A stretch of DNA of 64,000 nt from an uncultured Gemmatimonadota bacterium (GCA_951812955.1 OX638340.1:800001-864000); one strand, 5' to 3'. Positions 10,834-64,000 are shown, counted from the first letter of the stretch. The notes: generated by a model not told the origin, from the sequence alone. Numbers and translations: made by a program.

Positions 10834-11559
10834 TCAGATGACCATAGGCGTCTGCAGCACGGTTAGTCCCATGTCGATGTATTTTTCCCGCTTCGATGGG
10901 TCCAGAAGCGCCAGGCTGACCGCGACCGAAGTTCCCTCCATCTCCCGCGCCACGTGACGGACGCAGTCATCGACGGATCGGAAGAGTGGTCTATGGTAAC
11001 GTTCGATGTCGTACATCAGGTCATTGGGACCGAAGGTGAGGACGTCCACGCCGTCCAGGGCCAGTTGCCGGCAGTTGATGACGGCTTCGACCGACTCGAG
11101 TTGCAGCCATAGCACGCCGGTGTCGTTCCACCAGGCCGCGTATTCGAGACGGTCGGAACGATCGCGGATGCCATGACGCGCGCTCCCACCCCAGCTTCTT
11201 CCACCGAACTGAGGATAGTAGAAGAAGTGGACCGCTTCTTGCACGGTGGCTTCTTCCTTGACTTCGGGAACGAGGATGCCTGCGGGACCCAGATCCAGGT
11301 AATTTCCAATCAGGTAGGTGTGTCTCGTGTGCTTAATCCGAAGGATCACCGGAACGCCCAACTCCTCGGCCGAGGCACAGAACGAAACGATCCGGTCCTC
11401 GCTCTGGGGCCCATGCTGACAGTCGACATTGAAGAAATCGATCTCGCCCTCCCGTAGAAACCGCTCCAGGTCCTCCCTGCGGGAATCCATGGATACGCCC
11501 AGGCCGTTTACGATTTCACCGCTGCGGATGCGGTGTTTCAGCGAGATTGGCTCTACCAT
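10834..11559 (-). CDS. HpcH/HpaI-family aldolase (2-keto-3-deoxy-sugar-acid aldolase / citrate lyase beta-like)
   Basis: About 240 aa TIM-barrel pattern with ...VDCQHGP... and LTFGPNDL motifs typical of HpcH/HpaI aldolases. Confidence 0.7.
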   Translation of the reverse strand: MVEPISLKHRIRSGEIVNGLGVSMDSRREDLERFLREGEIDFFNVDCQHGPQSEDRIVSFCASAEELGVPVILRIKHTRHTYLIGNYLDLGPAGILVPEVKEEATVQEAVHFFYYPQFGGRSWGGSARHGIRDRSDRLEYAAWWNDTGVLWLQLESVEAVINCRQLALDGVDVLTFGPNDLMYDIERYHRPLFRSVDDCVRHVAREMEGTSVAVSLALLDPSKREKYIDMGLTVLQTPMVI

Positions 11560-45443: not shown

Positions 45444-46490
45444 TCACAGGATGCCAGCCTGCAACCGGCGCGGCATACGAAAGTCAAGCAGCGCCTGTTG
45501 AAACCCTGGTGTCGGAACAGGGTCGCCCTCGATCCTGAAAGCCCAGCCATCCGAGTTTTCGACCGGTTTCTCGTAGAGACCGGACAGCACGCCTGCCATG
45601 CTCTCCGATTCGTCGATCGAGGACCGGATGGGGAACACCTCGCCGGAGCGCTTCCTCGTCTTTTTTGACAATTCGATCAAATACCTCGTAAGCGACACGC
45701 GATATCCTGTCCCGTCACGCTCGACTTGAACCAAGTGGCCCCGATCCACGCATTCCCTGCGAATCACGTCCCACGGTATCGTTACCCGCGGATTCAAAAC
45801 GCGGTAACGCAGATCCGGCGTCCATTCCAGTGCCACCGCGATGACGGGCAGCCTGTCCTCCACATCGCAGAACGCGCTGCTGAACGCGAGATCCGTGTGG
45901 TAATCCGGAAGAAACCGATTTGCGTTTCCATGGTGAATGAGAAACAGCAGCGCACTTCTTTGTCCTTCCCTGTTCATTCGAGCCAGCGAAAGCAGATGCC
46001 GTCGCCCCCGTTCCGTGACCGCGTCGGGAAACATGGCGATACCATTCGCGGAAAGGGTACAGGACTTGACTTCCAGGTACAGGTCTCCTTCGCCATCCCG
46101 TAACAGCATGTCGAACCGGTGGTCGCCAACGGTCACCTCCGTCCGTTCAACACTGAAGTCCCTCAAACCGGGAATCGCCCGGGCATCGATCAGGCGCTGC
46201 GACGCGACGTTGTTCAGATGGGTGTGGAGGAACACAATGTGATCCTGGTACTTTACGGCCATCACCGTATACCGCGTATTGCGGTAGTCCAGTCGGCCGT
46301 GATCTGCCAAGATCAGTTTCACTCCCGGAAGAAGCAGTTCTTTCATTCTGCCGGGATTTGGCATGAAAACATTCGTCTCCCGGCCGTCTATCATGCAGTG
46401 AACGCAGAATCGGTTGGGACGGGTGAGAAAAGTCCCCTCGACCAGTGGACGGGAAGTGATGGGCGAGTAAAAACCGGTCATGTCGGTCAT
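45444..46490 (-). CDS. sfsA: SfsA-family (sugar fermentation stimulation protein A / DNA-binding nuclease fold) protein with ~110-aa C-terminal extension
   Basis: GTFLTRPNRFCVHCMIDGRE...; conserved FPDAVTERG and EVKSCTL blocks of SfsA. Confidence 0.7.
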   Translation of the reverse strand: MTDMTGFYSPITSRPLVEGTFLTRPNRFCVHCMIDGRETNVFMPNPGRMKELLLPGVKLILADHGRLDYRNTRYTVMAVKYQDHIVFLHTHLNNVASQRLIDARAIPGLRDFSVERTEVTVGDHRFDMLLRDGEGDLYLEVKSCTLSANGIAMFPDAVTERGRRHLLSLARMNREGQRSALLFLIHHGNANRFLPDYHTDLAFSSAFCDVEDRLPVIAVALEWTPDLRYRVLNPRVTIPWDVIRRECVDRGHLVQVERDGTGYRVSLTRYLIELSKKTRKRSGEVFPIRSSIDESESMAGVLSGLYEKPVENSDGWAFRIEGDPVPTPGFQQALLDFRMPRRLQAGIL

Positions 46491-46567: not shown

Positions 46568-47650
46568 TCAGTCGGACAAAAGTTCCTGCAACCGATTGAT
46601 TACCAGGTCTACCTCTCCCGGTTGCAGCGTACCGAGTTTCACCCGGAAACGGCTGTTCCTGCACCAGGTTACGATGGAAGGTTCACCGTCAAGCAACAGC
46701 CTTTCGAATTCCAGGTCGGAACATCCAATCCGCTCGAGGTCGATTTCTACGGAGACCACGTCGCCGCTTCGCTTGACCGAGTTTACCAGGGAGGATGAGG
46801 CCAGCCCCTTTCGGATCGCCAGGCCCATGCGGTTGTATTCCCTGCGGACCGCGTCCTCGTCCCTTTCCATGATGTACTTTACCGCTGCGTAGATGCCGGC
46901 CAGCTCTTCCTTTCCTACCTTCATGGTTCGGCCAATGGCCCGGTTGGGATTGCCGTGGGCGGCACATCCCTCGATGATGGACCGCTTGCCGATTACGAGT
47001 CCGGTGGTCTGTGGGCCGCGAATCGCCTTTCCGCCGCTGGCGATTATGGCATCCACTCCCAGTTCACGGGTGAAATACCGGAAATTCGCTTTCGGAGGTA
47101 TACTGAAGGCCGCGTCAACGAGAACGGGTACGTTATGCCCGTGGGCGATGTCGACGATACGGTCAATGGGCAGCATGCGACCCCAGGGAGACAGCGTCAG
47201 CACGGCAGCCGTTCGTTCGTTGATACAAGCCGCAAGTTGTTCCTCCGTGGCGCCGCGCTCGTCTCCCATTTCCACGATCACCGCGCCGGGGGACTGGATG
47301 GCGATGTCCTCGTAAAACCGCGCGCAGCGGTGCACGATGACCTCGTTCTTCATGCCGGACGTATCGGGCAGTCTTTCGATCTTTTCCGGGTCCGTTCCGG
47401 CCATGCAGGCGGCGACCGCCAGCGCGATCCCACCCGCGGCACCGCAGCTCACGTACGCGGCCTCGTTTCCGGTCATTTCGGCAATGGCCTTGCCGACACG
47501 TGTCTGCATCTCGTGCAGGTTGACGTACTGGCGGGACGCTTCGACCATGGCTTCCACCGCGCAGGGCCACATGATCGATCCGCCGAACCGCGTGTAGTTG
47601 TCGGCGGCGTTTATGAAAGGGCGGACGCCCAGTTCCTCGTAAACATCCAT
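46568..47650 (-). CDS. SelA-like PLP-dependent enzyme (L-seryl-tRNA selenium transferase / DgaE-related fold); shorter than true SelA
   Basis: ...YVNLHEMQTRVGKAIAEMTGNEAAYVSCGAAGGIALAVAACM... and ASGGKAIRGPQTTG (PLP-lysine region) resemble the SelA/DgaE family. It is 360 aa, whereas SelA is ~460. Confidence 0.45.
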   Translation of the reverse strand: MDVYEELGVRPFINAADNYTRFGGSIMWPCAVEAMVEASRQYVNLHEMQTRVGKAIAEMTGNEAAYVSCGAAGGIALAVAACMAGTDPEKIERLPDTSGMKNEVIVHRCARFYEDIAIQSPGAVIVEMGDERGATEEQLAACINERTAAVLTLSPWGRMLPIDRIVDIAHGHNVPVLVDAAFSIPPKANFRYFTRELGVDAIIASGGKAIRGPQTTGLVIGKRSIIEGCAAHGNPNRAIGRTMKVGKEELAGIYAAVKYIMERDEDAVRREYNRMGLAIRKGLASSSLVNSVKRSGDVVSVEIDLERIGCSDLEFERLLLDGEPSIVTWCRNSRFRVKLGTLQPGEVDLVINRLQELLSD

Positions 47651-49452: not shown

Positions 49453-50343
49453 ATGGCGTCCAATACAGGCGAATTCGAATCCTTCCTGGCGATGTTTGAA
49501 CGCGGTGATTTGGAGGCCGCAAGCGCCTATGTAGAAAGCCATCCCCTGCTGGCCGATTACGATGGCATCCAGGCCCACCCTCTACTTCGGGAGTTCGTTC
49601 GCAGGAATTGCGGCCACTGCTACAAATCGTCCCATCGGGCCATCGCAGATCTCCTTATTCCTGATCGGATTCGAGCCTTTCGGAATGACGTGATGGCCGA
49701 CCGGACCGATAACGTCAAGTCACGACTGAACGCGGAACCCAATCTCGTGCATGCAGAGTTTACCGGCGGCCGGGGAATCGCCCGAGCGATACACCACTGG
49801 CGGTCCATCCCTGTCGGCAAGCTGCTGCTGGACGGCGGGGCCGACGTGAATGCCCTTACGACTGTAGGTTGTGCCGGGGAAACACCCCTCATGATGCAAC
49901 TTCGTTTCGGTACCGTGGAAGGCGTGCGCTTTCTTTTGGCAAACGGCGCGGAAACGAATCTGGGCGGACTCAAGCATTCGCCGAGCACATCGATGGCCGC
50001 GGGGCTCAAGCTGCTGCTTCGGCACGGATGGGACATCAACGAGCGGGTAGGCGGCCGCACCCTGCTGCACCATGACGCCAATCACGGTCACGGTAAGCGC
50101 GTTCAACTGCTGCTGGGGCATGGCGCCGATCCCAACATTAAAGATGCCGAGGGTCGAACCGCGTTGCACCTGGTCAGTGCGAGAGGGGTCGGCGCGGAGA
50201 CGATCCGCGCCCTGGTGGAAGCCGGCGCACTCGTGGATGCCCGTGATGATCAAGATAGAACTCCATTAGACCTGGCCGCTTCGGCCAGGAGCCAGGCAGC
50301 GCTCCGAGCGCTTCAGAAGCTTGGCGCCCCTGGCGCCCGGTGA
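49453..50343 (+). CDS. ankyrin-repeat protein
   Basis: ANK repeats (..TPLMMQLRFGTVEGVRFLLANGAE..; ..TALHLVSARGVGAETIRALVEAGALVD..). Confidence 0.85.
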   Translation: MASNTGEFESFLAMFERGDLEAASAYVESHPLLADYDGIQAHPLLREFVRRNCGHCYKSSHRAIADLLIPDRIRAFRNDVMADRTDNVKSRLNAEPNLVHAEFTGGRGIARAIHHWRSIPVGKLLLDGGADVNALTTVGCAGETPLMMQLRFGTVEGVRFLLANGAETNLGGLKHSPSTSMAAGLKLLLRHGWDINERVGGRTLLHHDANHGHGKRVQLLLGHGADPNIKDAEGRTALHLVSARGVGAETIRALVEAGALVDARDDQDRTPLDLAASARSQAALRALQKLGAPGAR

Positions 50344-50384: not shown

Positions 50385-52085
50385 GTGTCCCAAAAACACG
50401 CTTTGGAAATCTGTGGAAAATACCCTGAACGCGCAGAACGCATGGCCTTCCCAGGCAAGTTCCTTGGGCGGGTACATCTCGATGCGTGCCGGACCGGTTG
50501 CATGATTTGTCCGGGGCTGGGCCCGGAGCTCGGTCGCCCCTATTATGACGACCGCTGGGGCGACGATACCGACTGGATCGACGGCGAATCCGCCTGGACT
50601 CTGTTCAAAGCAAGCACGGCAGGTGACCTGGAAGTTATCGCAGCACTCCTCGACGAAGACCCGCGTCTCGTGAATGCGATGCACTGGTACACCCAGCCCG
50701 TACACCTGGCCGCCCGGCACGGGCACGCCGAAGCGACGGAGTTGCTTCTCGCTCGGAACGCCGACCCGGGGCTGGTTATTTTCGATTCGACCTGGTCAAG
50801 CCTGCTCGAGAACACACGATCCCGTGGGTTTGAGGACGTAGTGGAAGTGATTTCCGGTGCGATGCGAGATCGATTCGGCTACGATCCCGCGTTCATGGAG
50901 ATAGCCGGGCTGATTGAGAACAGCAACGTTGAAATGGTTAAAACGGCGCTGAATGACAATCCCGAACTCGTTGATCGATCCGACGCGGCAGGAAACAACG
51001 GTCTTCACCTCGGTGTGATAAATGGCCGTAAAAACCTGGTCGAACTGTTTCTCGAACGCGGTCTGCCCATAGATTCACGACGTGCTGACGGGAAAACACC
51101 GCTGACACTGTCTTTCGACACGGGTTTCGGACAACATCCACCGGACCCGAAACTGGGTATAACCGAGAATCTTTTGATGAATGGTGCGGATTACGCCATC
51201 ACGGCAGCCAGTTACCTGGGTGATCATGCCCGGGTTCGTTCGATCCTCGATGAGAATCCATCGGCTGCCGGCCGCGACGCGTCGATGAAGAGCCCCCTGG
51301 CGTACGCGGCTAGAGCGGGGCACGAAGATATTGCCCGGATGCTGCTTGACGCAGGAGTCGATGGCCATGTCGTGGACGAAGCGCTTTTTGAAGCTGTATG
51401 GTGTAAGCACGCGGGTGTTGCTGACCTGTTGCTGGAATACGGAGCCAACCCGAACGTGGAATTGGATTCTTGCGGATATGCCGCGGGTACCGATGAACAC
51501 GCGATACGGGATCTGCTCGTGCGTAATGGCGGGGTGACTCCACCATATTGGGAACTGGGTCAAAACGAACTCCGTCAGCTGGTGGATTGCAGAGCCGCAA
51601 GGGTCCGAGATCCCTACCTGATTGCGAATGTGCTCGAATCCGAGGACGAGAAACTGATCGACAGGTTACTGGATGGTGATCCACTTGCACTCGGCCGCCT
51701 GGAGGAACTTCAATACCTGCCGGGATGGGGTGACCATGCTGTGATTACGCGCAAACTGGTCGCGGCGGGGCTCGATCCGAACCGAAGGACATTCGAAGGC
51801 CAGACCTATCTTCACGTCTGTGCCAGGCAGGGCTGGGAGAAGACGGCTCAGGCATTAATCGAACAAGGTGCTGCGGTAAACGTACTGGATGAGAAGGAAG
51901 GCTGGACACCGCTGGCGATCGCGGTCAAAAACGGCCGGATCGGTATGGTTCGGCTGTTGTTGGAACGCGGCGCGGATCCCTACCTGGCCGATTGGCCATG
52001 GACTCGACCGCTAACGGTTGCAGAGGAGATTGATAACGAAGGAATTACAGAACTTTTACGTCTCTACAAAGGCAATACTGCATAA
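50385..52085 (+). CDS. ankyrin-repeat protein (566 aa)
   Basis: More than 10 ANK repeats (..QPVHLAARHGHAEATELLLARNADP..; ..TPLAIAVKNGRIGMVRLLLERGADP..). Confidence 0.85.
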   Translation: MSQKHALEICGKYPERAERMAFPGKFLGRVHLDACRTGCMICPGLGPELGRPYYDDRWGDDTDWIDGESAWTLFKASTAGDLEVIAALLDEDPRLVNAMHWYTQPVHLAARHGHAEATELLLARNADPGLVIFDSTWSSLLENTRSRGFEDVVEVISGAMRDRFGYDPAFMEIAGLIENSNVEMVKTALNDNPELVDRSDAAGNNGLHLGVINGRKNLVELFLERGLPIDSRRADGKTPLTLSFDTGFGQHPPDPKLGITENLLMNGADYAITAASYLGDHARVRSILDENPSAAGRDASMKSPLAYAARAGHEDIARMLLDAGVDGHVVDEALFEAVWCKHAGVADLLLEYGANPNVELDSCGYAAGTDEHAIRDLLVRNGGVTPPYWELGQNELRQLVDCRAARVRDPYLIANVLESEDEKLIDRLLDGDPLALGRLEELQYLPGWGDHAVITRKLVAAGLDPNRRTFEGQTYLHVCARQGWEKTAQALIEQGAAVNVLDEKEGWTPLAIAVKNGRIGMVRLLLERGADPYLADWPWTRPLTVAEEIDNEGITELLRLYKGNTA

Positions 52086-53145: not shown

Positions 53146-54372
53146 ATGATGAACGCCACCATCAGACAATTGCCCGATCAGCCGAATCTGCGACTACTCG
53201 AAAACGAGGCATCTGAACTGCTCGAGAATGGCTCCTGCACTACACAGGCCGAGGCACGTTTCAAACTAGCGCACCTGTACGGTTTTAAGAGTTGGCCGAA
53301 ACTGGAAGCCTACGTATCATCCATCGGATCCATGGGAGAACTCGAACAGGCAATCCAGGACGACGACGTCGATAGAGTGAAGCGGATATTGGACGAGGAC
53401 CCGGGGCTGATTCACCGTGAAGGGCACTGGGTCAAACGCCGCAGGCACAACGGCTACCTGCCGCTCGCATACGCTGCGTTTTTCGGTAAGGTAAACGTGC
53501 TGGCGGCACTGGTCGAGGCCGGTTCGAATGTACGCGCTGGGGAGGACAAGGCGTTACGAGCCGCGGCGTGTTTCGACAAAAACCTCCCCGCGGTCGAATT
53601 ACTGATCCGCCATGGAGCAGACCCAAACGCATCGACTACATCGCCTTCCGGTGTCCCGTACCGGGTGATCGATTATCCATGCATGACGTTGGCGCCCAAG
53701 ATGTTAGCCCACCTGGTTGAGAAGGGCGGTATTTTGAAGCCGGCCAATGCCGGGATGGTACTCGCGACGAATGAACGCAGACCCCGGGAGAAAGCCGCCT
53801 GCCTTCGCGTGATGGAACATGCGGGTATCCCGTTTCCGGATTCCCCTCCGATGGCCCTTCATCTCAGGGACTCGAACCGTCTGGAATCGCATCTGCTCAG
53901 GGATCCCGGATTGCTCTCGAGGTCGTTCAGCGAAGAAGACATCTTCCCAACGGGTTTCGAAATCAAGCGTCCTACGCCCTACGCTTACGCAACACCGCTG
54001 ACCGGTGGGGTCTCCCTGCTTCACATGGCTGTCGAGTTGTGTGACGTGGAACTGGCGCGGTGGCTCATCGAGCATGGCGCCGACGTTAATGCCGCCGCGG
54101 GGACAGACGACGAGGGATACGGCGGATGGACGCCCCTGTTCCACGCCATGGTCACGCTGCGCGTCCCACGTGGTTTTGCCGAAATCGTCGATCTGCTCCT
54201 GGATCATGGCGCCGACCCGGAAGTGCGAGCGTCCCTGCGTAAACCGACTCCAGAGGGTGGAGAAGCCACCTGGCGCGACGTTACGGCGGCCGATTACGCC
54301 CGAAGATTCATCTACACGGATTTAGTCAATCACGACGCGCTGCAGCGGGTCATGGTGGCCGGTGCGAAATAG
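53146..54372 (+). CDS. ankyrin-repeat protein
   Basis: ANK repeats (..LPLAYAAFFGKVNVLAALVEAGSNV..; ..SLLHMAVELCDVELARWLIEHGADVN..). Confidence 0.85.
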   Translation: MMNATIRQLPDQPNLRLLENEASELLENGSCTTQAEARFKLAHLYGFKSWPKLEAYVSSIGSMGELEQAIQDDDVDRVKRILDEDPGLIHREGHWVKRRRHNGYLPLAYAAFFGKVNVLAALVEAGSNVRAGEDKALRAAACFDKNLPAVELLIRHGADPNASTTSPSGVPYRVIDYPCMTLAPKMLAHLVEKGGILKPANAGMVLATNERRPREKAACLRVMEHAGIPFPDSPPMALHLRDSNRLESHLLRDPGLLSRSFSEEDIFPTGFEIKRPTPYAYATPLTGGVSLLHMAVELCDVELARWLIEHGADVNAAAGTDDEGYGGWTPLFHAMVTLRVPRGFAEIVDLLLDHGADPEVRASLRKPTPEGGEATWRDVTAADYARRFIYTDLVNHDALQRVMVAGAK

Positions 54373-54400: not shown

Positions 54401-56284
54401 ATGGACCCCGCCATGACTCCGAAAACGCCTTCTACCAGTCTACAGGTTGGTACCGTGTCCGATCACGATTATGCCCCCTCGAAGAACTGGCCCTACCCGG
54501 TCACAAAGTCACAAATCATGGACGAGGTCCGGAAACTGTCATTGGCCATCCAGGACGGTCGTGCCGAAGCCATGGCAGAAAAAAACAGGTATGGAAGTTC
54601 AGCTGATCCGTCATCGTTCTCCCCGGACGACGCACGGAACGTACTCGCCCTAAGTTACGGATTCCCGGGCTGGACACAGGTAGAACGGTACTTCGATACG
54701 GTAGACAGGTATTCGCGCGACCCTAACATGGAACCCACGCCAACCAATTCGGATGACGCGTCTTCGCTCGCCGATGTTTTCCTTCGTCTTGCCTGCCTGA
54801 CGCAGGGCGTCCAGGACCACCCGTCTCGGTGGGCAAGGGCCAGGGCCTTGCTCGATGACCATCCGAAACTATCCCGGTTGAATATCTACACCGCTTCGGT
54901 CGCCGGCGACGTTTCAGCCGTGGGCGAATACCTGGAAGCGGATTCTGAACTGGCTACGACGCCTGGCGGCCCCCATGACTGGGAGCCCCTGCTATACCTG
55001 GCGTATTCCCGTCTGGACCGCGAGACCTCGGGGCATTCCGCCGTCGAAATCACCCGGTTGCTCCTCTCCCATGGCGCCGACCCGAACGCGGGCTACCTCT
55101 GGGCGGGTTTCCCCTGCCCTTACACCGTACTGACCGGAGTCTTCGGCGAGGGTGAGAACGGTCCGGTCAGGTGTCCTCCACACCCTAACTGCTGCAAACT
55201 GGCGGAAATCCTGTTGGAGGCCGGGGCCGATCCCAACGACGCCCAGACACTATACAACAGGATGTTCAGCCGCGACGACGAACACCTTCGGTTCCTGTTC
55301 ACGCACGGCCTGGGGAAGGACCGGGACCGGCCCTGGCACCGGTTGTTGGGCGAACAATCCCGCGGCTGGGTGAGCAGTCCCGCGAGCATACTGGCCTACC
55401 AGCTTCAGTGGGCAGCCCGATGGAACTACCTGGATCGCGTCAAGTTACTGGTCGAAAACGGCGCCGACGTAAACAGGCCCTCCAACCGGCCCGATGCGCG
55501 ATCACCTTACCGCGAGGCCGTGTTCCACGGAAACGAGTCCATCGCCGAATACCTGGCAATCTGCGGCGCGGAGACGTTTGTGCTGGACGACCTGGACCGT
55601 TTCGCCGGCGCGTGCATCAGTGGAGACCTGGGTCGTGCCCGCGCGATGCTCGCACGCGATCCGTCACTCGTTGAAAAACTTGGAGAACGCGGGAACACGC
55701 TCATGGAGAACGCCGTTGGGTCGGACAACCGGGACGCGGTCCGGCTGATGTTCGAACTGGGCTTCGACTTGAAGAAATCCGGTATGCAAGAAGCGGCCCG
55801 TTATGGCCACCTGGACATGATCAAACTGCTGGTCGAGCTTGGGACTGATGTTTCCCAAACGGACGCGGGCCACGAGATCTGTGCCCTGGGCTATGCCAGC
55901 CATTACCAGCAAAATAACGTGATCGACTACCTGGCGCAGTTCGCCGGGATACACAGAGCAGTGCAGTCGGACTTGTTGGAACGGGTCGGGGAACTGCTTG
56001 ACGAAGATCCCGGTCTCGTACACGCTCGAGATACCAGCGGCAACTCGCCGCTGCACTGTCTCGACGTGGACAACAGGATGGAAGATACGGAGGAGATACT
56101 CCGTCTGCTCGTAACGCACGGAGCCGATGTCAATGCCAGAAACAAGGAAGGCCTGACACCGCTCGACAGGCTGGAGCTTCTTTCCGGTTTCAGTCGAAGA
56201 GACGGTTTGGCGGAACTGTTGCGCGGGTACGGGGCCGTGGAGTCAGACGCCGCCGACGGGTCAAAGAACCGTCCGGAGTCGTGA
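54401..56284 (+). CDS. ankyrin-repeat protein (627 aa)
   Basis: Many ANK repeats (..EAARYGHLDMIKLLVELGTDV..; ..SPLHCLDVDNRMEDTEEILRLLVTHGADVN..). Confidence 0.85.
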   Translation: MDPAMTPKTPSTSLQVGTVSDHDYAPSKNWPYPVTKSQIMDEVRKLSLAIQDGRAEAMAEKNRYGSSADPSSFSPDDARNVLALSYGFPGWTQVERYFDTVDRYSRDPNMEPTPTNSDDASSLADVFLRLACLTQGVQDHPSRWARARALLDDHPKLSRLNIYTASVAGDVSAVGEYLEADSELATTPGGPHDWEPLLYLAYSRLDRETSGHSAVEITRLLLSHGADPNAGYLWAGFPCPYTVLTGVFGEGENGPVRCPPHPNCCKLAEILLEAGADPNDAQTLYNRMFSRDDEHLRFLFTHGLGKDRDRPWHRLLGEQSRGWVSSPASILAYQLQWAARWNYLDRVKLLVENGADVNRPSNRPDARSPYREAVFHGNESIAEYLAICGAETFVLDDLDRFAGACISGDLGRARAMLARDPSLVEKLGERGNTLMENAVGSDNRDAVRLMFELGFDLKKSGMQEAARYGHLDMIKLLVELGTDVSQTDAGHEICALGYASHYQQNNVIDYLAQFAGIHRAVQSDLLERVGELLDEDPGLVHARDTSGNSPLHCLDVDNRMEDTEEILRLLVTHGADVNARNKEGLTPLDRLELLSGFSRRDGLAELLRGYGAVESDAADGSKNRPES

Positions 56285-57177: not shown

Positions 57178-58020
57178 TTACATGTCCGCGAATTTCACGT
57201 TGTTTTTGGCAAAGAAAGCCTTCGGCGTGAACCCGGAAAACGCCGTGAACTCCCTGATAAAATGAGCCTGGTCGAAATACCCGCATTCGTAGGCCAGTTG
57301 CGTCAGCGTCTTTCCCCGATACCCATCCAGATGATGGCAGATATTCAGGAACCTGCTGGTGCGGGCGAAGGTCTTCGGCGTCGTGCCGACCGTAGCCGCA
57401 AACTTCCTTTCCAATTGCTTTTTTGAAAGACCGACGCGCTGACCGACTTCTTCGATGGATAACTGCCCTCCGGCGGATCGAATGAGCTTTACCGCTTTAT
57501 CGAGGGCGGAATCGTTCGTGCGATACTCCGTCAGACGATCCAGCAGGAACTGTTGCACGACTTGGGCGAAATCCGTACCGCCCGCGGCCTTGCAGAGTTT
57601 CTCCATCAAGTCCTTATGATACGACGACCAGAGTGTCTCGGTGTCTACCGCATCGTCCAGAAAACTGCTGACCGGTTTGTCGAAAAAGTGATAGGCGCCC
57701 CACGGAAAGAAGCGTACCGAGACGAAGCCGGTCCGGCCGTTGGACTCGATTTCTATGCACCTGCGCATCTGGGAAATAGCGAAACTCTTCGGCTGGATCC
57801 TAAATTCCCTGCCCGCTACAGTTGTTATCCAGGGATCGCCGTAGTGAAAGACGACCTCCACGATACCGTCTGGTACGATGAGAGACTTTGGCGCGTGGTC
57901 ATCCTCGTGCTCGGATTCCATCATCCACACGAGCTGGACATAGGGAGCCAGGCCGGCGTGCGTTTTAAATTCGCGATATATCATGACGTGTACGAATTCT
58001 CCCGGTTTCGTGACCGTCAT
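57178..58020 (-). CDS. AraC-family transcriptional regulator
   Basis: C-terminal double HTH: LSIEEVGQRVGLSKKQLERKFAATVGTTPKTFARTSRFLNICHHL...LAYECGYFDQAHFIREFTAFSGFTP. Start possibly at MIYRE (57984). Confidence 0.8.
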   Translation of the reverse strand: MTVTKPGEFVHVMIYREFKTHAGLAPYVQLVWMMESEHEDDHAPKSLIVPDGIVEVVFHYGDPWITTVAGREFRIQPKSFAISQMRRCIEIESNGRTGFVSVRFFPWGAYHFFDKPVSSFLDDAVDTETLWSSYHKDLMEKLCKAAGGTDFAQVVQQFLLDRLTEYRTNDSALDKAVKLIRSAGGQLSIEEVGQRVGLSKKQLERKFAATVGTTPKTFARTSRFLNICHHLDGYRGKTLTQLAYECGYFDQAHFIREFTAFSGFTPKAFFAKNNVKFADM

Positions 58021-58353: not shown

Positions 58354-59874
58354 ATGCCGTCCCTGCCTTCACAACCCGATATACGCCATCTCAGTCTGCA
58401 GGCGAAAACGCTTCTGAAGTCCGCGCGCAGCGGCGAAGAGCATGCCGTAGACAGAATCCGCTCGGCCATCGGAGTGCGACGCGAACGCCTCGTGCTGTCG
58501 GACGCCTACCATGCCATCGCCAGGGAATACGGGTTCAGGTCCTGGCCCCATCTCAAGATACACATCGAAATCGTCGCTAGAAACCTGGACGAACAGCGCG
58601 AGATGTTTCTGTCATCGGCATGGCTGTGGGGCGATCGGCAGAGAGCCGAGGCCCTGCTCGCTACCGCTCCGGAACTCTCCAAGGGAAACATCCATGCCGC
58701 CTGCGCCGCCGGGGACGTGGATGCCGTCGCAGGTATCCTGGAGGCCGACCCCGCTTCGGCCACGACGAAGGGCGGTCCGAGAGACTGGCCCCCGATACTC
58801 TACGCGACGTGGTCCTGCTTTCTTTCCGAACGTGCCGACGCCATGGTCCGAGTCCTGGAATTGCTGCTGCGGCACGGCGCCGACCCGGACAGCTACTGGG
58901 TGAACGAGTCGGACTGGAAAGAGTCGGCCCTTTACGGATGCGTTGAAAACAACTGCGTACCGGCGGCCAGGGTGCTGGTGGACGCGGGCGCCAACCCAAA
59001 TGACAACGAATCCCTCTACCACGCCTGTGAGAAATTCAACCTGGAACTGCTCGACACGGTCGCGGCGAACGGACTGGACGCGGAAGGCGTCTCCTATTGC
59101 ATCAAGCATGCCATGGACATGACATGGACCGAGGCCGTCATGTGGTTTCTCGACCAGGGCGCCGATCCCAACGCCATCCATCCCGCCGACCGGGAGACCT
59201 CCCTTCACTGGGCGGTAAAGAGAAACTGCACAGCAGACGTGATCAGTGCGCTCCTGGACGCCGGAGCGGACCCCAACGCACGCACGTCGACCGGGAAGAG
59301 TACGGCCCTCGGGATCGTCGGCTGGACGCCCCTCGATTTCGCCTTCCGGCTCGGTCGCGGGGAGGTCGCCGCGCTCCTACAGCGGAATAGCGCCGAACCG
59401 TCCCCCATGTCCGAATACGACCGCTTCGTAGTCGCGTGCGCCAATACGGACCTCGATATCGTGGAGCAACTGAAAGACCGTCACCTGGCCAACTTGACTG
59501 ACGACGACCGGACCCTCATCAGCCACGCGGCCCAGATGGACAACTGGGCGGCGGTCCGTCTCATGGCGGACCTGGGCTGGCCGGTAGACGCCCGGGGCTG
59601 GATGGATGCCACGCCCCTCTACTGGGCCCTGTGCAAAGGCCATGCCGAAATGGTCGATTTCCTGCTTCGGCGGGGTGTCTCCATCGAACCCATCGGCGGA
59701 TACTTCCAGGATCCGGTCCATGCCGTGATTCATTGCCAGTGGAATGGGGACAAAAGCGGGTACCCGGTCGCGCTCGGTCGACTGCTCGACCATGGCCTCG
59801 GCGTTCCGGAAGGACGCTATCCATGCGGCAATGTCGCGATGGACGAGGTGCTGTCGCGCTACGTCGAAAACTGA
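58354..59874 (+). CDS. ankyrin-repeat protein (506 aa)
   Basis: ANK repeats (..TSLHWAVKRNCTADVISALLDAGADPN..; ..TPLYWALCKGHAEMVDFLLRRGVS..); RBS GAAGGAGG. Confidence 0.85.
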   Translation: MPSLPSQPDIRHLSLQAKTLLKSARSGEEHAVDRIRSAIGVRRERLVLSDAYHAIAREYGFRSWPHLKIHIEIVARNLDEQREMFLSSAWLWGDRQRAEALLATAPELSKGNIHAACAAGDVDAVAGILEADPASATTKGGPRDWPPILYATWSCFLSERADAMVRVLELLLRHGADPDSYWVNESDWKESALYGCVENNCVPAARVLVDAGANPNDNESLYHACEKFNLELLDTVAANGLDAEGVSYCIKHAMDMTWTEAVMWFLDQGADPNAIHPADRETSLHWAVKRNCTADVISALLDAGADPNARTSTGKSTALGIVGWTPLDFAFRLGRGEVAALLQRNSAEPSPMSEYDRFVVACANTDLDIVEQLKDRHLANLTDDDRTLISHAAQMDNWAAVRLMADLGWPVDARGWMDATPLYWALCKGHAEMVDFLLRRGVSIEPIGGYFQDPVHAVIHCQWNGDKSGYPVALGRLLDHGLGVPEGRYPCGNVAMDEVLSRYVEN

Positions 59875-60006
59875 GGCTGAATTCGGAGGAAGAGGACTGA
59901 GGCGGAGTCCGGCGGAACGCCGAACGGCCTGCTCGGTTTCCCGCTCGGAAGCATGGCTACACTATCCTGAATCATGGCTTCGATAACGGGAAAGGCCACG
60001 GCCACC

Positions 60007-60035
60007 TTGACAAACAAAGGGCGGGCCGGTATATA
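60007..60035 (+). promoter_or_regulatory. near-consensus sigma70 promoter for the yggX-radical SAM operon
   Basis: TTGACA (60007-12), exactly 17 nt, then TATATA (60030-35); about 75 nt upstream of yggX. Confidence 0.5.
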
Positions 60036-60110
60036 GCCTGTGTTTCATCGCACCCGATGCCAACCGGCATATGATCAACCAAGATGACGCCCGTTTCGAG
60101 GAGGCACTGC

Positions 60111-60386
60111 ATGGCCCGCATGGTCCAATGCGTAAAGCTCAACAAAGAACTCGAAGGTCTCGAATTCGTACCATTCCCCAACGAGCTTGGCCAGCGCATC
60201 TACGACAACATTTCCAAAGAGGCCTGGCAGATGTGGATCCACCATTCGGTCATGGTCATCAACGAGTACCGCCTGAATCTCGCCACGACCGAAAGCCAGG
60301 AAATCTACGACCGGCACCTGGAGGAGTTCCTTTTCGGTGAAGGCGCCGAAATGCCGCCGGGATACCGCCCTCCCCAGACGAAATGA
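60111..60386 (+). CDS. yggX: Fe(II)-trafficking / oxidative-damage protection protein YggX
   Basis: MARMVQCVKLNKELEGLEFVPFPNELGQRIYDNISKEAWQMW...FLFGEG aligns along its length with E. coli YggX (91 aa). RBS GAGGAGG 6 nt before ATG 60111. Confidence 0.8.
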   Translation: MARMVQCVKLNKELEGLEFVPFPNELGQRIYDNISKEAWQMWIHHSVMVINEYRLNLATTESQEIYDRHLEEFLFGEGAEMPPGYRPPQTK

Positions 60387-60419
60387 CCCACATCGCCTGC
60401 ACTGCCACATGGTTCGATC

Positions 60420-61868
60420 ATGAAACGTGATGATGGCATCCTCCTCATTTCCTGCTATGAACTGGGTCATCAGCCCTTCAGCCTCGCTTCCCCCGCGGCC
60501 CGCCTGAAGTCCGAAGGATACGAAGTCTCCGTAGTCGATGCCGCGATCGAGCCGATCCCGGAAGATGCCGTCCAGCGTGCCGGGTTTATCGGCATCTCGG
60601 TTCCCATGCATACGGCCATGCGGGTGGGCATGGACCTGTCCGGCCGAATCCGGAACCTCAATCCGGACGCGCACCAGTGCTACTACGGACTCTACGCCAC
60701 GCTGAACGCAGACTATCTCCTGTCCCACGGCGCCGATTCGGTAATCGGAGGCGAATTCGAACAACCGCTCTGCGACCTTGTGGATAGATTGTGCGCGGGT
60801 GATGCCGCCATGCCGGACCCCGATCCGTCCACCGCACCATCCACCGCTCCATATCTTTCACGCCAGACCTGGCTGGTCCCGGACCGAGGGAGTCTGCCCG
60901 CTTTGAAACGGTACGCCCAGCTGGACACCGGAACGGAGACGCTGCCCGCCGGTTATACCGAGACCACGAGGGGTTGCCTCCATACCTGTCTTCATTGCCC
61001 GATCACGCCGGTGTACAACGGCCGGTTCTTTGCCGTACCTGCCAACGTCGTGCTCGCCGACATAGCCCAGCAGGTGCGCATGGGCGCCCGCCACATCACC
61101 TTCGGGGACCCGGATTTCCTGAACGGTCCGACCCATGTCCTTCGCATTCTGCGCAGGCTGAAGGAAACCCATCCCGGAATCACCTTCGATTTCACCACCA
61201 AGATCGAACATATCCTCCGGCACGCGGGGTTTTTCCCCGAGGCGAAGGCGCTCGGCGCGCTTTTCGTCGTATCGGCCGTCGAATCGGTCAGCGATCTCGT
61301 GCTCATGCGCCTGGAGAAAGGTCACACTCGGGAGGACATCGTCAGGGCGCTCGCTATCCTCCGAGACGCGGACCTGCCCATGCGGCCTTCGCTGGTGGCC
61401 TTCACACCCTGGACGACGCTGGACGACTATCTGGAATTGCTGGATTTCGTCGAAGTTCACGACCTGGTCGATCACATCGACCCGGTGCAGTACACCATAC
61501 GACTGCTCGTGCCGCCCGGTTCGGCCCTGCTGGAAACAGAGGATGCCAGGACCTGGATCGGCAAGCTGGATGAAGCCGGGTTTACTTACGAGTGGAGCCA
61601 TTCCGATGCTAGAATGGACCACCTGCATCGGCGGGTATCCCGTCTTGTGGAAGGAGCCGACGCTTCGGGGGAGGAGCGGGACAACCGGAGCATCTTTCAC
61701 CGGATCCGGCGCCTCGCCGCGGAGACGGCCGGAGTCGAAGCGGTCGAAGGACCCACGGAACGGCCCTTTGAAGTCCTGTCGCCGAAACGGCGACGGATCC
61801 CCAGGCTGACCGAGGCCTGGTTCTGCTGAGCGGAGCCCACGGCGAGCCGGAAAGGCTCGTTCATTTGA
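60420..61868 (+). CDS. B12-binding-domain radical SAM protein with C-terminal CUAEP tail, where U is a predicted selenocysteine encoded by in-frame TGA 61827-61829 (CUAEP/CCAEP-tail family)
   Basis: Radical SAM CxxxCxxC (RGCLHTCLHC) after an N-terminal B12-binding-like domain. The annotated ORF stops at TGA 61829 right after ...EAWFC, but the frame continues: TGA-GCG-GAG-CCC gives C-U-A-E-P-TASRKGSFI, then TGA at 61866-61868. Confidence 0.75.
61843..61859 (+). ncRNA. candidate bacterial SECIS hairpin (CGAGCC-GGAAA-GGCUCG) 14 nt downstream of the recoded UGA
   Basis: Perfect 6-bp stem with a 5-nt loop, read directly. The position, with the apex about 24 nt after UGA, is compatible with SelB-dependent SECIS elements. 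Confidence 0.4.
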
Positions 61869-61884
61869 TCTTTACGGGTGAAAA

Positions 61885-63084
61885 TCAGGAAGCATAACCG
61901 TCCTGGACGGGGCCGCAGTGCTGCGACCGGGCGGGCGCCCGATACTGCACGCGGTGATCGGGCGTCTCGATGCGTATGCCGCCCTGCTGTTTCGAAGTAA
62001 GACAATGATCGAGGATGCCGCATACGGTCAACGTCCGTTCAACCGGGATCGGTGATACGCCGGTCTCGAACATCTCGTCGATCCTCGACACAAGGCAGGC
62101 CGAGTAGGTAACCGGAGGAGTGGGCGGCAGGAAGAACTGGGTCGAACAGGGCTCAGGTTCGTCTTTGAGGCGGGCGGCGAAACAATAGTCGCCGATCGCG
62201 CCATTGAGCATGAGCAGCGTGGTCTGAAGACCGTCCATGTGTTCGATGAAGTAGGCGGCCGGCTCAGTGGCGAGCCGGTGCAATTCGCCCGTCCCCAGCA
62301 GGTCCTGCGTGCGGCCATCCTGCTCGGGCAGTCCCTTCGGACTGTCACAGCGCGACAGTGCCGATTCCAGCAATTCCTTCGAGTAACGTCCCTGGTCGCC
62401 GGCCTCCCACACCGCGTCCCCCACGATCATCTGGACAGACCTGACGCCCGTCTCGCCACCCCTGCGACGCTCGATCATGCACTGCATGGCCTCGAGTGCG
62501 TGATAGTCCATGGCGTCCGAACCGCCGACCCCTACCATCAGCGCTTCGTCGATATCGCATTCCAGCGGCAGTTCGAGGTCGGGCAGCCGCCATGTGACCG
62601 GAAGGCTCGAACCCGCGAGCACTGGAAAACCGAGCCGCTTGGAATCGGCCACCATTTCCAGGCCCCTTGCAAAGCTGTAGGAGAGATTCTTGTCGTTGTA
62701 GACCGGCACTGAGCGGCCGTCCTGCTCGAAAACTTCGACGCAGGCCTTGAACATCTCGTAGCGCGGGTAGAGTTTCTGTCCCTTCTCGTTGTCCGAATAG
62801 TCGCCGTGTTCGCAGATGATCAGGATCCCGTCCACCGCCAGGGAATCCCCGCCGCACCGCAGGGCTTCGGCTATGGTGGGATAGACCTCGAAACCGAACT
62901 CGCGGGCGCGGTCTGTGCTCTGGTCGCCTTCGGGACGCTGATCCACGTAAAGCGACACAACCTCGACGTCCGGCCTGCGCCAGCGGCCCGAATTCGGATA
63001 GCCGACGAGGAACCGGTCCGCGAAATGCTGCGAGTGGGAGAGATAGGTGTAGATTGAACTGATGACGGCGAGCCGCTTCGGCAT
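61885..63084 (-). CDS. hypothetical protein (399 aa), tandem paralog 1 of 2; function unknown
   Basis: Long ORF, convergent with the radical SAM gene. Paralogous to the next gene, sharing blocks EHGDYSDNEKGQKLYPRYEMF, GSSLPVTWR and LEAMQCMIERR. Weak resemblance to a degenerate Rossmann-like oxidoreductase N-terminus. Confidence 0.5.
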   Translation of the reverse strand: MPKRLAVISSIYTYLSHSQHFADRFLVGYPNSGRWRRPDVEVVSLYVDQRPEGDQSTDRAREFGFEVYPTIAEALRCGGDSLAVDGILIICEHGDYSDNEKGQKLYPRYEMFKACVEVFEQDGRSVPVYNDKNLSYSFARGLEMVADSKRLGFPVLAGSSLPVTWRLPDLELPLECDIDEALMVGVGGSDAMDYHALEAMQCMIERRRGGETGVRSVQMIVGDAVWEAGDQGRYSKELLESALSRCDSPKGLPEQDGRTQDLLGTGELHRLATEPAAYFIEHMDGLQTTLLMLNGAIGDYCFAARLKDEPEPCSTQFFLPPTPPVTYSACLVSRIDEMFETGVSPIPVERTLTVCGILDHCLTSKQQGGIRIETPDHRVQYRAPARSQHCGPVQDGYAS

Positions 63085-63087
63085 GGT

Positions 63088-64000
63088 TCAATATCTCCAG
63101 AAGGTGGAGTTTTCAGGCGCGGGGTATTCGACGTCGAGATGGGGCGTTTCCAGCCTTACCTGTCCTTCGTGCAGGCTGTCGACGCCGGCCGCGGTCAGTC
63201 CCGATGTCAGGAGGGTCCGCTCGACGGGATAGGCGGCCTCGCCGGACAGGAACATCTGTTCCACGTTGTTGACCTGCGGCGAGAAGAAGTTGGCCAGCGA
63301 GGTGCGCGCAGGCGGCATAGGCAGGTACATCTGGGTCGACAGCGGTTCGCTGCGCCCCGACAGGCGAGCCGCGAAGTTGAAGTCTTCGACCAGCCCGCTA
63401 AACAGGATCATGGTGCACTTGACCCCGTCGCGGTGCTCGTAAGTGTAGGCGACGGGATCCTCCACCATCCGCTTCATCTCGTTGATGGTCGGGAAGACGT
63501 TGTTGAACCCGTCGCGGGATGGTTTCAGCGTGTGACTGCGACACAGTGCCGCTTCGAAGAGTTCGCGGGACCACACTTCGTCGTGGAAAGCCTCCCAGAA
63601 TGCCTCGAGCCGACGGGCGTGGAGCCAGGAGACGCCCGACTCGCCGCCCTTGCGCCGTTCGACCATGCATTGCAGGGTCTCCAGGCCGTGGAAATCGTAA
63701 CTGTCGACCCCGCCGTAGCATACGCACACGGCTTCTTCGACCTCGGCGTGAAGCGGCATGTCGACTGAGGGCGTCCGCCACGTGACCGGCAGGCTGGATC
63801 CGGCCATGAAGGCAAAACCCAGGCGCTGCGCGGTATCGTACATTTCCTTGGCCCAGTCCCAGTTCCACGACAGGTGCTTGTCGTTGAATATGGGAACGGT
63901 ACGGCCGCTTCGCTCATAGACTTCCACGATCTCGCGGAACAGTTCGTAGCGTGGATAAAGCCGTTGTCCCTTCTCGTTGGTTTGATACTCGCCGTGTTCT
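63088..64000 (-). CDS. hypothetical protein, tandem paralog 2 of 2; N-terminus beyond window end
   Basis: The frame stays open to position 64000 (...EHGEYQTNEKGQRLYPRYELFREIVEVYERSGRTVP...). The ORF-track start at 63927 is an internal GTG. Paralogous to 61885-63084. Confidence 0.5.
   Translation of the reverse strand, partial: EHGEYQTNEKGQRLYPRYELFREIVEVYERSGRTVPIFNDKHLSWNWDWAKEMYDTAQRLGFAFMAGSSLPVTWRTPSVDMPLHAEVEEAVCVCYGGVDSYDFHGLETLQCMVERRKGGESGVSWLHARRLEAFWEAFHDEVWSRELFEAALCRSHTLKPSRDGFNNVFPTINEMKRMVEDPVAYTYEHRDGVKCTMILFSGLVEDFNFAARLSGRSEPLSTQMYLPMPPARTSLANFFSPQVNNVEQMFLSGEAAYPVERTLLTSGLTAAGVDSLHEGQVRLETPHLDVEYPAPENSTFWRY

Follow-up and report, generated by a model that had tools for sequence, protein, structure and literature searches.

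The operon and the paralog pair as probable separate units

Positions 60007-64000 of a 64,000-nt stretch of DNA from an uncultured Gemmatimonadota bacterium (GCA_951812955.1, OX638340.1:800001-864000; hereafter the window) contain yggX, a gene for a radical S-adenosylmethionine (SAM) enzyme with a predicted selenocysteine (Sec) near its C-terminus and, facing these on the opposite strand, two tandem paralogous genes, here called A and B, of which B is the first in the direction of transcription. We find that the region is best explained as two separate units, a yggX-radical SAM operon and an independent B-A pair, which are neighbours only through lineage-specific synteny, and we estimate the probability of this explanation, taken jointly with the functions proposed below for the two units, at roughly 0.72. 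The open reading frame (ORF) map and the raw sequence match the coordinates given in a preliminary description of the window, which had instead proposed that yggX, the radical SAM gene and both paralogs form one pathway, with the pair handling the substrate or product of the radical SAM enzyme.

Neighbourhood conservation was investigated in two sets of loci, namely 80 genomic loci across bacterial phyla recovered with an alignment of the radical SAM family (radical SAM loci) and 80 metagenome loci recovered with an alignment of the paralogs (pair loci). The paralogs were found near the radical SAM gene in a single radical SAM locus, L011, which is 93% identical to the window in the paralogs. 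Likewise, yggX and the radical SAM gene were found near the pair in a single pair locus, L091, which comes from a 79%-identical relative and has a TPR/thioredoxin-like gene between A and the radical SAM gene. A further relative, L004, whose A is 87% identical, has the pair with yggX convergent to it and lacks the radical SAM gene altogether, a 76-nt gap at 11200-11277 of that contig corresponding to 60387-61884 of the window. Since L004 has no radical SAM gene between yggX and A, this gene has been cleanly gained or lost at this spot, between a resident yggX and the pair. In two distant contigs of complete-genome scale, moreover, the pair occurs in unrelated contexts with neither the radical SAM gene nor yggX nearby. 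As the pair and the radical SAM gene co-locate only in close relatives, and L004 lacks the latter, the adjacency observed in the window is synteny inherited within one Latescibacterota-like clade.

The B-A pair itself is an autonomous two-gene cassette. B was directly upstream of A, on the same strand, in every pair locus with enough flanking sequence, the order being assessable only where about 1.2 kb of flank exists. Clustering of the genes neighbouring the pair revealed no recurrent partner, the best candidate being a cluster of ORFs that resemble aldo/keto reductases, as judged by reading of the sequence, in 11 of 83 loci. A PhyH gene was observed near the pair in two loci (L007 and L009), and no PhyH-like cluster was among the recurrent neighbour clusters.

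A single four-gene pathway would be in keeping with the physical adjacency of the genes, the convergent 3' ends of the radical SAM gene and A being only 16 nt apart, and with the presence of yggX, or of yggX and the radical SAM gene, beside the pair in the Latescibacterota-like loci L001, L003, L011 and L091. It is difficult to reconcile, however, with co-location in just one of 80 loci in either set, in the one case in a 93%-identical relative and in the other with another gene in between, with the retention of yggX and the pair in the absence of the radical SAM gene in L004, with the solitary pairs on the distant contigs, and with the transcription of the two units in opposite directions. 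We thus consider a shared pathway very unlikely. The preliminary description had itself named two findings that would count against such a pathway, namely that the paralogs belong to a well-known housekeeping family and that they are never co-localised with radical SAM genes of this type in other genomes; co-localisation was indeed not seen outside close relatives, but the paralogs turned out to belong to an unnamed family rather than to a well-known one. For annotation, the operon and the pair should be kept apart rather than treated as a single system. Their features are collected in Table 1.

Table 1. Features of the yggX-radical SAM operon and of the B-A pair, in window coordinates
Feature	Positions	Strand	Description	Basis
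Candidate sigma-70-type promoter	60007-60035	+	-35 TTGACA (60007-60012), 17-nt spacer, -10 TATATA (60030-60035)	Sequence and conservation
Shine-Dalgarno sequence of yggX	60093-60099	+	GAGGAGG	Sequence; conserved in L001 and L011, AGGAGG in L004
yggX	60111-60386	+	Fe(2+)-trafficking/oxidative-damage protection protein, 91 aa	NF003817, 129 bits (cutoff 74); PF04362, 127 bits
Radical SAM gene	60420-61868	+	Predicted CUAEP-tail radical SAM selenoprotein, 482 aa including Sec470; N-terminal B12-binding-like domain and radical SAM core	NF040546, 690 bits
[4Fe-4S]/SAM motif	60975-60998	+	CxxxCxxC (C186, C190, C193)	Sequence; invariant in the family alignment
Predicted selenocysteine codon	61827-61829	+	UGA, Sec470, in the motif WFC-U-AEPT	Sec/Cys alternation among loci
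Predicted selenocysteine insertion sequence (SECIS) hairpin	61841-61861	+	Loop GGAAA, 6 Watson-Crick and 2 G-U pairs, starting 11 nt after the UGA	Covariation; also scores as terminator-like
Paralog A	61885-63084	-	399 aa, predicted Gfo/Idh/MocA fold lacking the GxGxxG loop; second gene of the pair	
Paralog B	63088-64000	-	Truncated at the window end, leaving the C-terminal 303 of about 397 aa; precedes A in the pair	Full length from L001

A probable selenoprotein of family NF040546

The preliminary description had identified the two genes of the operon as yggX and, 33 nt downstream, a radical SAM gene with a CUAEP tail, and our searches agree with both assignments. YggX matched NF003817 and PF04362 over its full length and well above cutoff, and because these profiles align from the first residue of the start at 60111, an upstream ATG at 60084 is not needed as the start codon. 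The radical SAM gene has 469 codons up to a TGA, and reading through this codon yields AEPTASRKGSFI, followed by a stop at 61866-61868. With U written as C, the product scored 690.5 bits against NF040546 (cutoff 500), aligning with positions 1-465 of the 468 in the model, and it is a new member of this named family. The second-best family was ArsL (NF040542, 322 bits), and all other radical SAM models scored below 40 bits. In Pfam, the Radical_SAM domain was significant and the B12-binding domain fell just below threshold (30.5 versus 32.1 bits). The nearest solved structure was 9ccb (E 4e-4).

Several lines of evidence point to decoding of the TGA as selenocysteine. Among the 80 radical SAM loci, WFC is followed by TGA in 56 and by TGC or TGT in 22; AEP(T) follows in frame in both groups, and the residues beyond it are likewise conserved in the Sec and Cys forms. 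In the database, 117 of the 120 best homologues end at WFC, because gene callers stopped at the UGA, and two continue with CCAEP. The UGA would be read with the help of the SECIS hairpin, which lies within the last 13 codons. Across 54 distinct Sec loci, 84.9% of the cells of a seven-pair SECIS helix were paired, compared with 70.8% after shuffling, and we counted 76 double-sided changes against 32 in the shuffles, none of 500 shuffles attaining the observed value. Pairing dropped to at most 57% once the partner columns were slid. Furthermore, the 48 nt after the codon had a lower mean folding energy, and thus a more stable fold, in Sec loci (-15.4 kcal/mol) than in Cys loci (-11.6 kcal/mol; Mann-Whitney p = 7e-4), and the hairpin is absent or weaker in the latter. 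Rfam held no model matching the hairpin; a scan of 59700-62100 returned no SECIS family and only one chance-level match, to the RT-19 RNA.

If the UGA were a true stop, the protein would end at Cys469 and the hairpin would be a mere intrinsic terminator of the yggX-radical SAM operon. This would account for the T-rich stretch that follows the hairpin and for its reported terminator-like character, and it would sit well with the modest z-score of the hairpin in the single window sequence (-1.3) and with no Sec machinery having been found within the window. It would not account for the retention of AEP(T) in frame after TGA and TGC/TGT codons alike, for a hairpin that covaries and is specific to TGA loci, or for the alignment of the NF040546 model through the tail, and we find a true stop scarcely credible. 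The selenoprotein call, made also in the preliminary description, is a sound prediction given the Sec/Cys alternation, the conserved in-frame tail and the covarying hairpin, and in annotation the gene should be extended by 39 nt past the called stop.

A pyridoxal phosphate-dependent enzyme encoded elsewhere in the window (46571-47650, minus strand) is related to DgaE/SelA, scoring 179 bits against TIGR01437 (cutoff 385) and 34 bits, below cutoff, against SelA; its gene adjoins an SfsA-like gene at 45444-46490. The enzyme is no genuine selenocysteine synthase and therefore provides no evidence for Sec machinery.

yggX and the radical SAM gene form a conserved module

By tblastn of YggX, yggX was detected immediately upstream of the radical SAM gene, on the same strand and with gaps of 24-340 nt, in 31 of the 80 loci, and it was directly upstream in 30 of the 75 loci whose upstream sequence extends for 400 nt or more. 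The 31 loci consist of a Latescibacterota metagenome-assembled genome (L011, radical SAM protein 80% identical), L012 and 29 Chloroflexota, the last including cultured Ktedonosporobacter, Thermogemmatispora, Thermosporothrix and Dictyobacter. When the other neighbours were clustered as ORFs and annotated with Pfam and NCBIfam, an NfuA-like protein (Nfu_N plus NifU) was found in 14 of 68 loci, from Acidobacteriota, Rokubacteria and Planctomycetota, nearly always just downstream and on the same strand. For the 63 loci with both flanks available, yggX only was present in 29, Nfu only in 12, both in none and neither in 22. The yggX-radical SAM pair is thus a conserved module, and the mutually exclusive occurrence of YggX and an NfuA-like protein at the adjacent position is the strongest functional signal in our analysis. 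It supports the idea, already voiced in the preliminary description, of an Fe-S enzyme paired with an iron chaperone.

yggX is known from E. coli and Salmonella as a general stress gene, whereas here and in Chloroflexota it shares an operon with one particular radical SAM enzyme. No characterisation of the CUAEP family or of the yggX-radical SAM pairing was found in the literature searched. In two Ktedonobacteria loci (L061, 9423-9944; L073, 1951-2481), two tandem copies of yggX lie directly upstream of the radical SAM gene.

Other genes recur beside the radical SAM gene as well. An ATP-grasp L-amino-acid ligase (LAL_C2, with weak similarity to BacD/DdaF) was found in 27 of 68 loci from several phyla and a DUF169 protein in 14 of 68 (Nitrospirota and Planctomycetota), while a divergently transcribed gene for an Fmt-like formyltransferase was present in 24 loci from Chloroflexota and an ATG22-type transporter (ATG22/MFS) in six from Acidobacteriota. 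In these phyla (loci L013-L089) the ligase, DUF169, Fmt-like and transporter genes resemble a small biosynthetic cassette for an amino-acid-derived product. A search of the whole 64-kb window for the L-amino-acid ligase, DUF169, Nfu, Fmt-like and ATG22 genes detected none of them; the module in the window is the minimal yggX-radical SAM pair.

The paralogs are predicted to be a divergent branch of the Gfo/Idh/MocA fold

In agreement with the preliminary description, A and B are tandem paralogs of about 400 aa that run convergently to the radical SAM gene. They are 44% identical over 300 aa (E 8e-94), and the full length of B, 397 aa, was obtained from the near-identical contig L001. That they match nothing recognised was also borne out at the level of sequence, as Pfam and NCBIfam scans of both paralogs returned nothing even at E <= 10, five members of the A/B family gave no match to PF01408, PF02894 or any other Pfam model at that threshold, and only chance matches came from searching PDB sequences with a profile of the paralogs. 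An AlphaFold2 model of A, built from a 26-sequence alignment, had a mean predicted local distance difference test score of 82.5 and a predicted template modelling score of 0.86, and according to this model the A/B proteins adopt the two-domain Gfo/Idh/MocA fold, with an N-terminal Rossmann-like domain and a C-terminal alpha/beta domain. Identity to structures of that fold is only 9-17% (GenD2 6nor, DgpA1 9m3d, inositol dehydrogenase 3mz0, GFOR and GH109).

The predicted cofactor site deviates from that of the canonical enzymes. The N-termini, AVISSIYTYLSHSQH in A and IAAITTVYHPYAHTQH in B, lack GxGxxG, the glycine-rich dinucleotide loop being replaced in both by (I/V)Y-x-Y-L-S-H-x-Q-H, and the EKP motif reads EHG, with histidine in place of the lysine. 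A GxGxx[GA] pattern was present in only 7 of 81 full-length family representatives. The A/B alignment also contains a GGSDxxDYH motif, at what we take to be the position where Gfo/Idh/MocA enzymes carry their catalytic Asp/His.

An exhaustive profile search showed the family to be large, with at least 3,244 clusters at 50% identity (E <= 1e-3), of which 756 had E <= 1e-30. The paralogs belong to a large branch of a known fold, conserved in several candidate phyla, for which no curated model exists, and they expose a family in which the fold is recognisable but the predicted cofactor site non-canonical. The top match, P0241 (799 aa), is a natural fusion in which a Pro-rich linker joins B to A in gene order, the N-terminal half scoring best to B and the C-terminal half to A. 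Given the existence of this fusion, B and A most likely work as one complex. The known enzymes of the Gfo/Idh/MocA family are homo-oligomers, each specified by one gene; unlike them, the paralogs occur as an apparently obligate B-A pair or fusion. We propose that B and A, the products of an ancient duplication, would most likely assemble into a heteromer in the cytoplasm, with a sugar or cyclitol as the predicted substrate. With low to moderate confidence, this heteromer can be placed in the redox metabolism of sugars, glycosides or cyclitols, as an enzyme whose cofactor site is non-canonical.

Twin-arginine translocation (Tat) signals were present in 34 of the 81 full-length representatives and are common in distant single-copy members, and in some distant members the fusion partner is a 3-keto-disaccharide hydrolase domain or the combination of a glucose/sorbosone dehydrogenase (GSDH) domain and cytochrome c. 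The distant members P0271, P0312, P0324 and P0243/P0246/P0251 carry Tat signals, some together with these fusions, and hint at periplasmic sugar oxidation. Beyond the end of the window, L001 (2720-8644) has sucA, sucB, an NfeD gene and a Band_7/stomatin-like gene upstream of B on the same strand, and the order is the same in L004; a gap of 130-160 nt before B leaves co-transcription with these genes uncertain.

Possible chemistry of the radical SAM selenoprotein

The protein shares with NF040546 the CxxxCxxC motif, the WFC-U-AEPT tail and the Sec/Cys alternation, and nothing sets it apart from that family. Two things are new relative to the family as described, namely a SECIS supported by covariation and the pattern of neighbours (yggX or Nfu, the L-amino-acid ligase and DUF169), for which the literature searched gave no description. 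NF040546 is listed as uncharacterised (Haft 2022, bioRxiv 10.1101/2022.07.06.499078). By far the closest characterised relative in sequence is ArsL (NF040542), which forms the C-As bond of arsinothricin. The two are homologous over positions 1-407 of the 423 in the ArsL model and have the same two-domain layout, and ArsL has a short Cys-rich C-terminal tail at the position equivalent to the Cys-Sec tail. The radical SAM protein does not reach the ArsL cutoff (321.8 bits versus 450), however, its tail C-U-AEPT offers two chalcogen ligands, one of them selenium, where RCCLKC of ArsL offers three thiols, and neither arsM nor any other ars gene is recurrent in its neighbourhood, their place being taken by yggX or Nfu, the L-amino-acid ligase and DUF169.

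By analogy with its sister family ArsL, the enzyme would use a [4Fe-4S] cluster and SAM, and YggX, or the NfuA-like carrier in other phyla, would supply iron for this cluster or repair it. The flexible C-terminal Cys-Sec dipeptide would either present a thiophilic substrate or act as a redox centre. We favour an ArsL-like mechanism, in which a fragment derived from SAM would meet a soft element or substrate offered by the tail, because the CUAEP family is the closest relative of ArsL and carries a short Cys-Sec tail at the equivalent position and because CU motifs have been tied to heavy-metal or organometallic chemistry (Haft 2022, bioRxiv 10.1101/2022.07.06.499078). ArsL makes a 3-amino-3-carboxypropyl (ACP) radical, and its tail binds As(III) (bioRxiv 10.1101/2024.02.01.577332, 10.64898/2026.04.29.721666).

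The main rival to substrate presentation is a tail that forms a redox-active selenenylsulfide and re-reduces the enzyme or its substrate, the enzyme itself being a canonical 5'-deoxyadenosyl radical enzyme that modifies, for example, a small molecule or a macromolecule. The GCUG tail of mammalian thioredoxin reductase, with its selenenylsulfide, provides an analogy. The CU dipeptide is indeed near the C-terminus, Sec and Cys alternate there among conserved neighbouring residues, and the many loci without biosynthetic partner genes, including those with neither yggX nor Nfu, would fit a housekeeping role. On the other hand, the nearest family, ArsL, uses a Cys-rich tail at the same position to bind its substrate As(III), CU motifs elsewhere have the link to heavy-metal and organometallic chemistry noted above, and a small product of amino-acid type is suggested by the L-amino-acid ligase and exporter-like genes that recur nearby. 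We therefore regard the redox tail as unlikely, though still worth considering, and prefer the ArsL-like mechanism.

A more elaborate version of the ArsL-like mechanism can be formulated, which we offer as speculation and would not expect to hold in all its parts. Here the CUAEP enzyme would be a second ArsL-type non-canonical radical SAM enzyme, transferring the ACP group of SAM to a soft element bound by the Cys-Sec tail, whether As, Sb, Se, Te or Hg, and giving a novel organo-(metalloid) amino acid, from which the adjacent BacD/DdaF-like ligase of many phyla would make a dipeptide antimetabolite. Because the unique iron of the cluster would be taken up in an Fe-C intermediate, a YggX- or NfuA-like donor dedicated to the cluster would be required. 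The B-A pair, for its part, would represent a new cofactor-binding mode in the Gfo/Idh/MocA fold.

Several points weigh against our overall explanation of the region, with the functions that it includes. The convergent yggX-pair synteny persists over relatives that are 79-93% identical, and a local functional link between the two units is possible. The yggX linkage comes from just two or three lineages, all but the 29 Chloroflexota loci belonging to the Latescibacterota-like clade, and about a third of the radical SAM loci with both flanks (22 of 63) have neither yggX nor Nfu beside the gene. Neither Sec machinery nor tRNA-Sec was detected, whether in the window or around the loci examined; a search of the window for tRNA genes returned none whatsoever, and none of 56 loci around the radical SAM gene or the pair that were searched for tRNA-Sec contained one. 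The radical SAM enzyme belongs to a family listed as uncharacterised, and its proposed chemistry is an inference. Lastly, with no glycine loop and with His for the EKP lysine, the paralogs might not be NAD(P) enzymes, and they might even be non-enzymatic, like Gal80, which has this fold and is not catalytic.

The CUAEP enzymes are among the few selenoprotein families with a Cys-Sec dipeptide, and ArsL, their sole characterised relative, carries out unusual organometallic chemistry. The neighbourhood pattern, with mutually exclusive YggX and NfuA-like proteins, the ligase and DUF169, offers enzymologists concrete hypotheses, and radical SAM loci occur in the cultured hosts Ktedonosporobacter rubrisoli, Thermogemmatispora carboxidivorans, Thermosporothrix hazakensis and Dictyobacter arantiisoli.

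DNA upstream of yggX and surrounding genes

The preliminary description had placed a near-consensus sigma70 promoter upstream of yggX. TTGACA and TATATA, 17 nt apart, are indeed present at 60007-60035, but as they match the consensus at 10 of 12 positions, the -10 element having no T at position 6, the promoter is strictly not near-consensus, and a consensus promoter scan returned no site. For this reason the promoter claim rests on conservation. The block cTTGACAa-N15-gGTATATAg, about 100 nt upstream of yggX, is retained in the window, L001, L004, L011 and L012, and occurs as a variant in L091, while the DNA around it has diverged among the relatives. Conservation of the block is reasonable footprint evidence that the promoter is real. 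The chance-level RT-19 match mentioned above, to a small RNA model, overlaps the promoter (59961-60069, plus strand; 21 bits versus a gathering score of 78, E 0.29).

A precursor of a ribosomally synthesised and post-translationally modified peptide (RiPP) beside the radical SAM gene was considered and rejected. As the preliminary description had remarked, there is no obvious precursor ORF in 59875-60110, between the nearest ankyrin gene and yggX; a scan for small ORFs in this interval gave none that was credible, and its DNA, except for the promoter block, is not conserved in relatives. On the downstream side the gap (61869-61884) is just 16 nt. With no credible or conserved small ORF upstream and so short a gap downstream, a RiPP-type precursor is not supported.

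In L012 (9392-9541) and L091 (15426-15578), genes for tRNA-Gly(GCC) and tRNA-Cys(GCA) lie just upstream of the yggX promoter, in the position that an ankyrin gene occupies in the window. An AraC-family regulator with an N-terminal DUF6597 domain (57178-58020, minus strand) is divergent from the ankyrin gene at 58354 and has no evident link to the yggX operon. Altogether, five ankyrin-repeat genes are found within 10 kb upstream of yggX (49453-50343, 50385-52085, 53146-54372, 54401-56284 and 58354-59874), and L001 likewise carries several. Ankyrin-rich genomes are typical of sponge symbionts or other host-associated symbionts, and the five genes in the window thus suggest that the organism may be host-associated.

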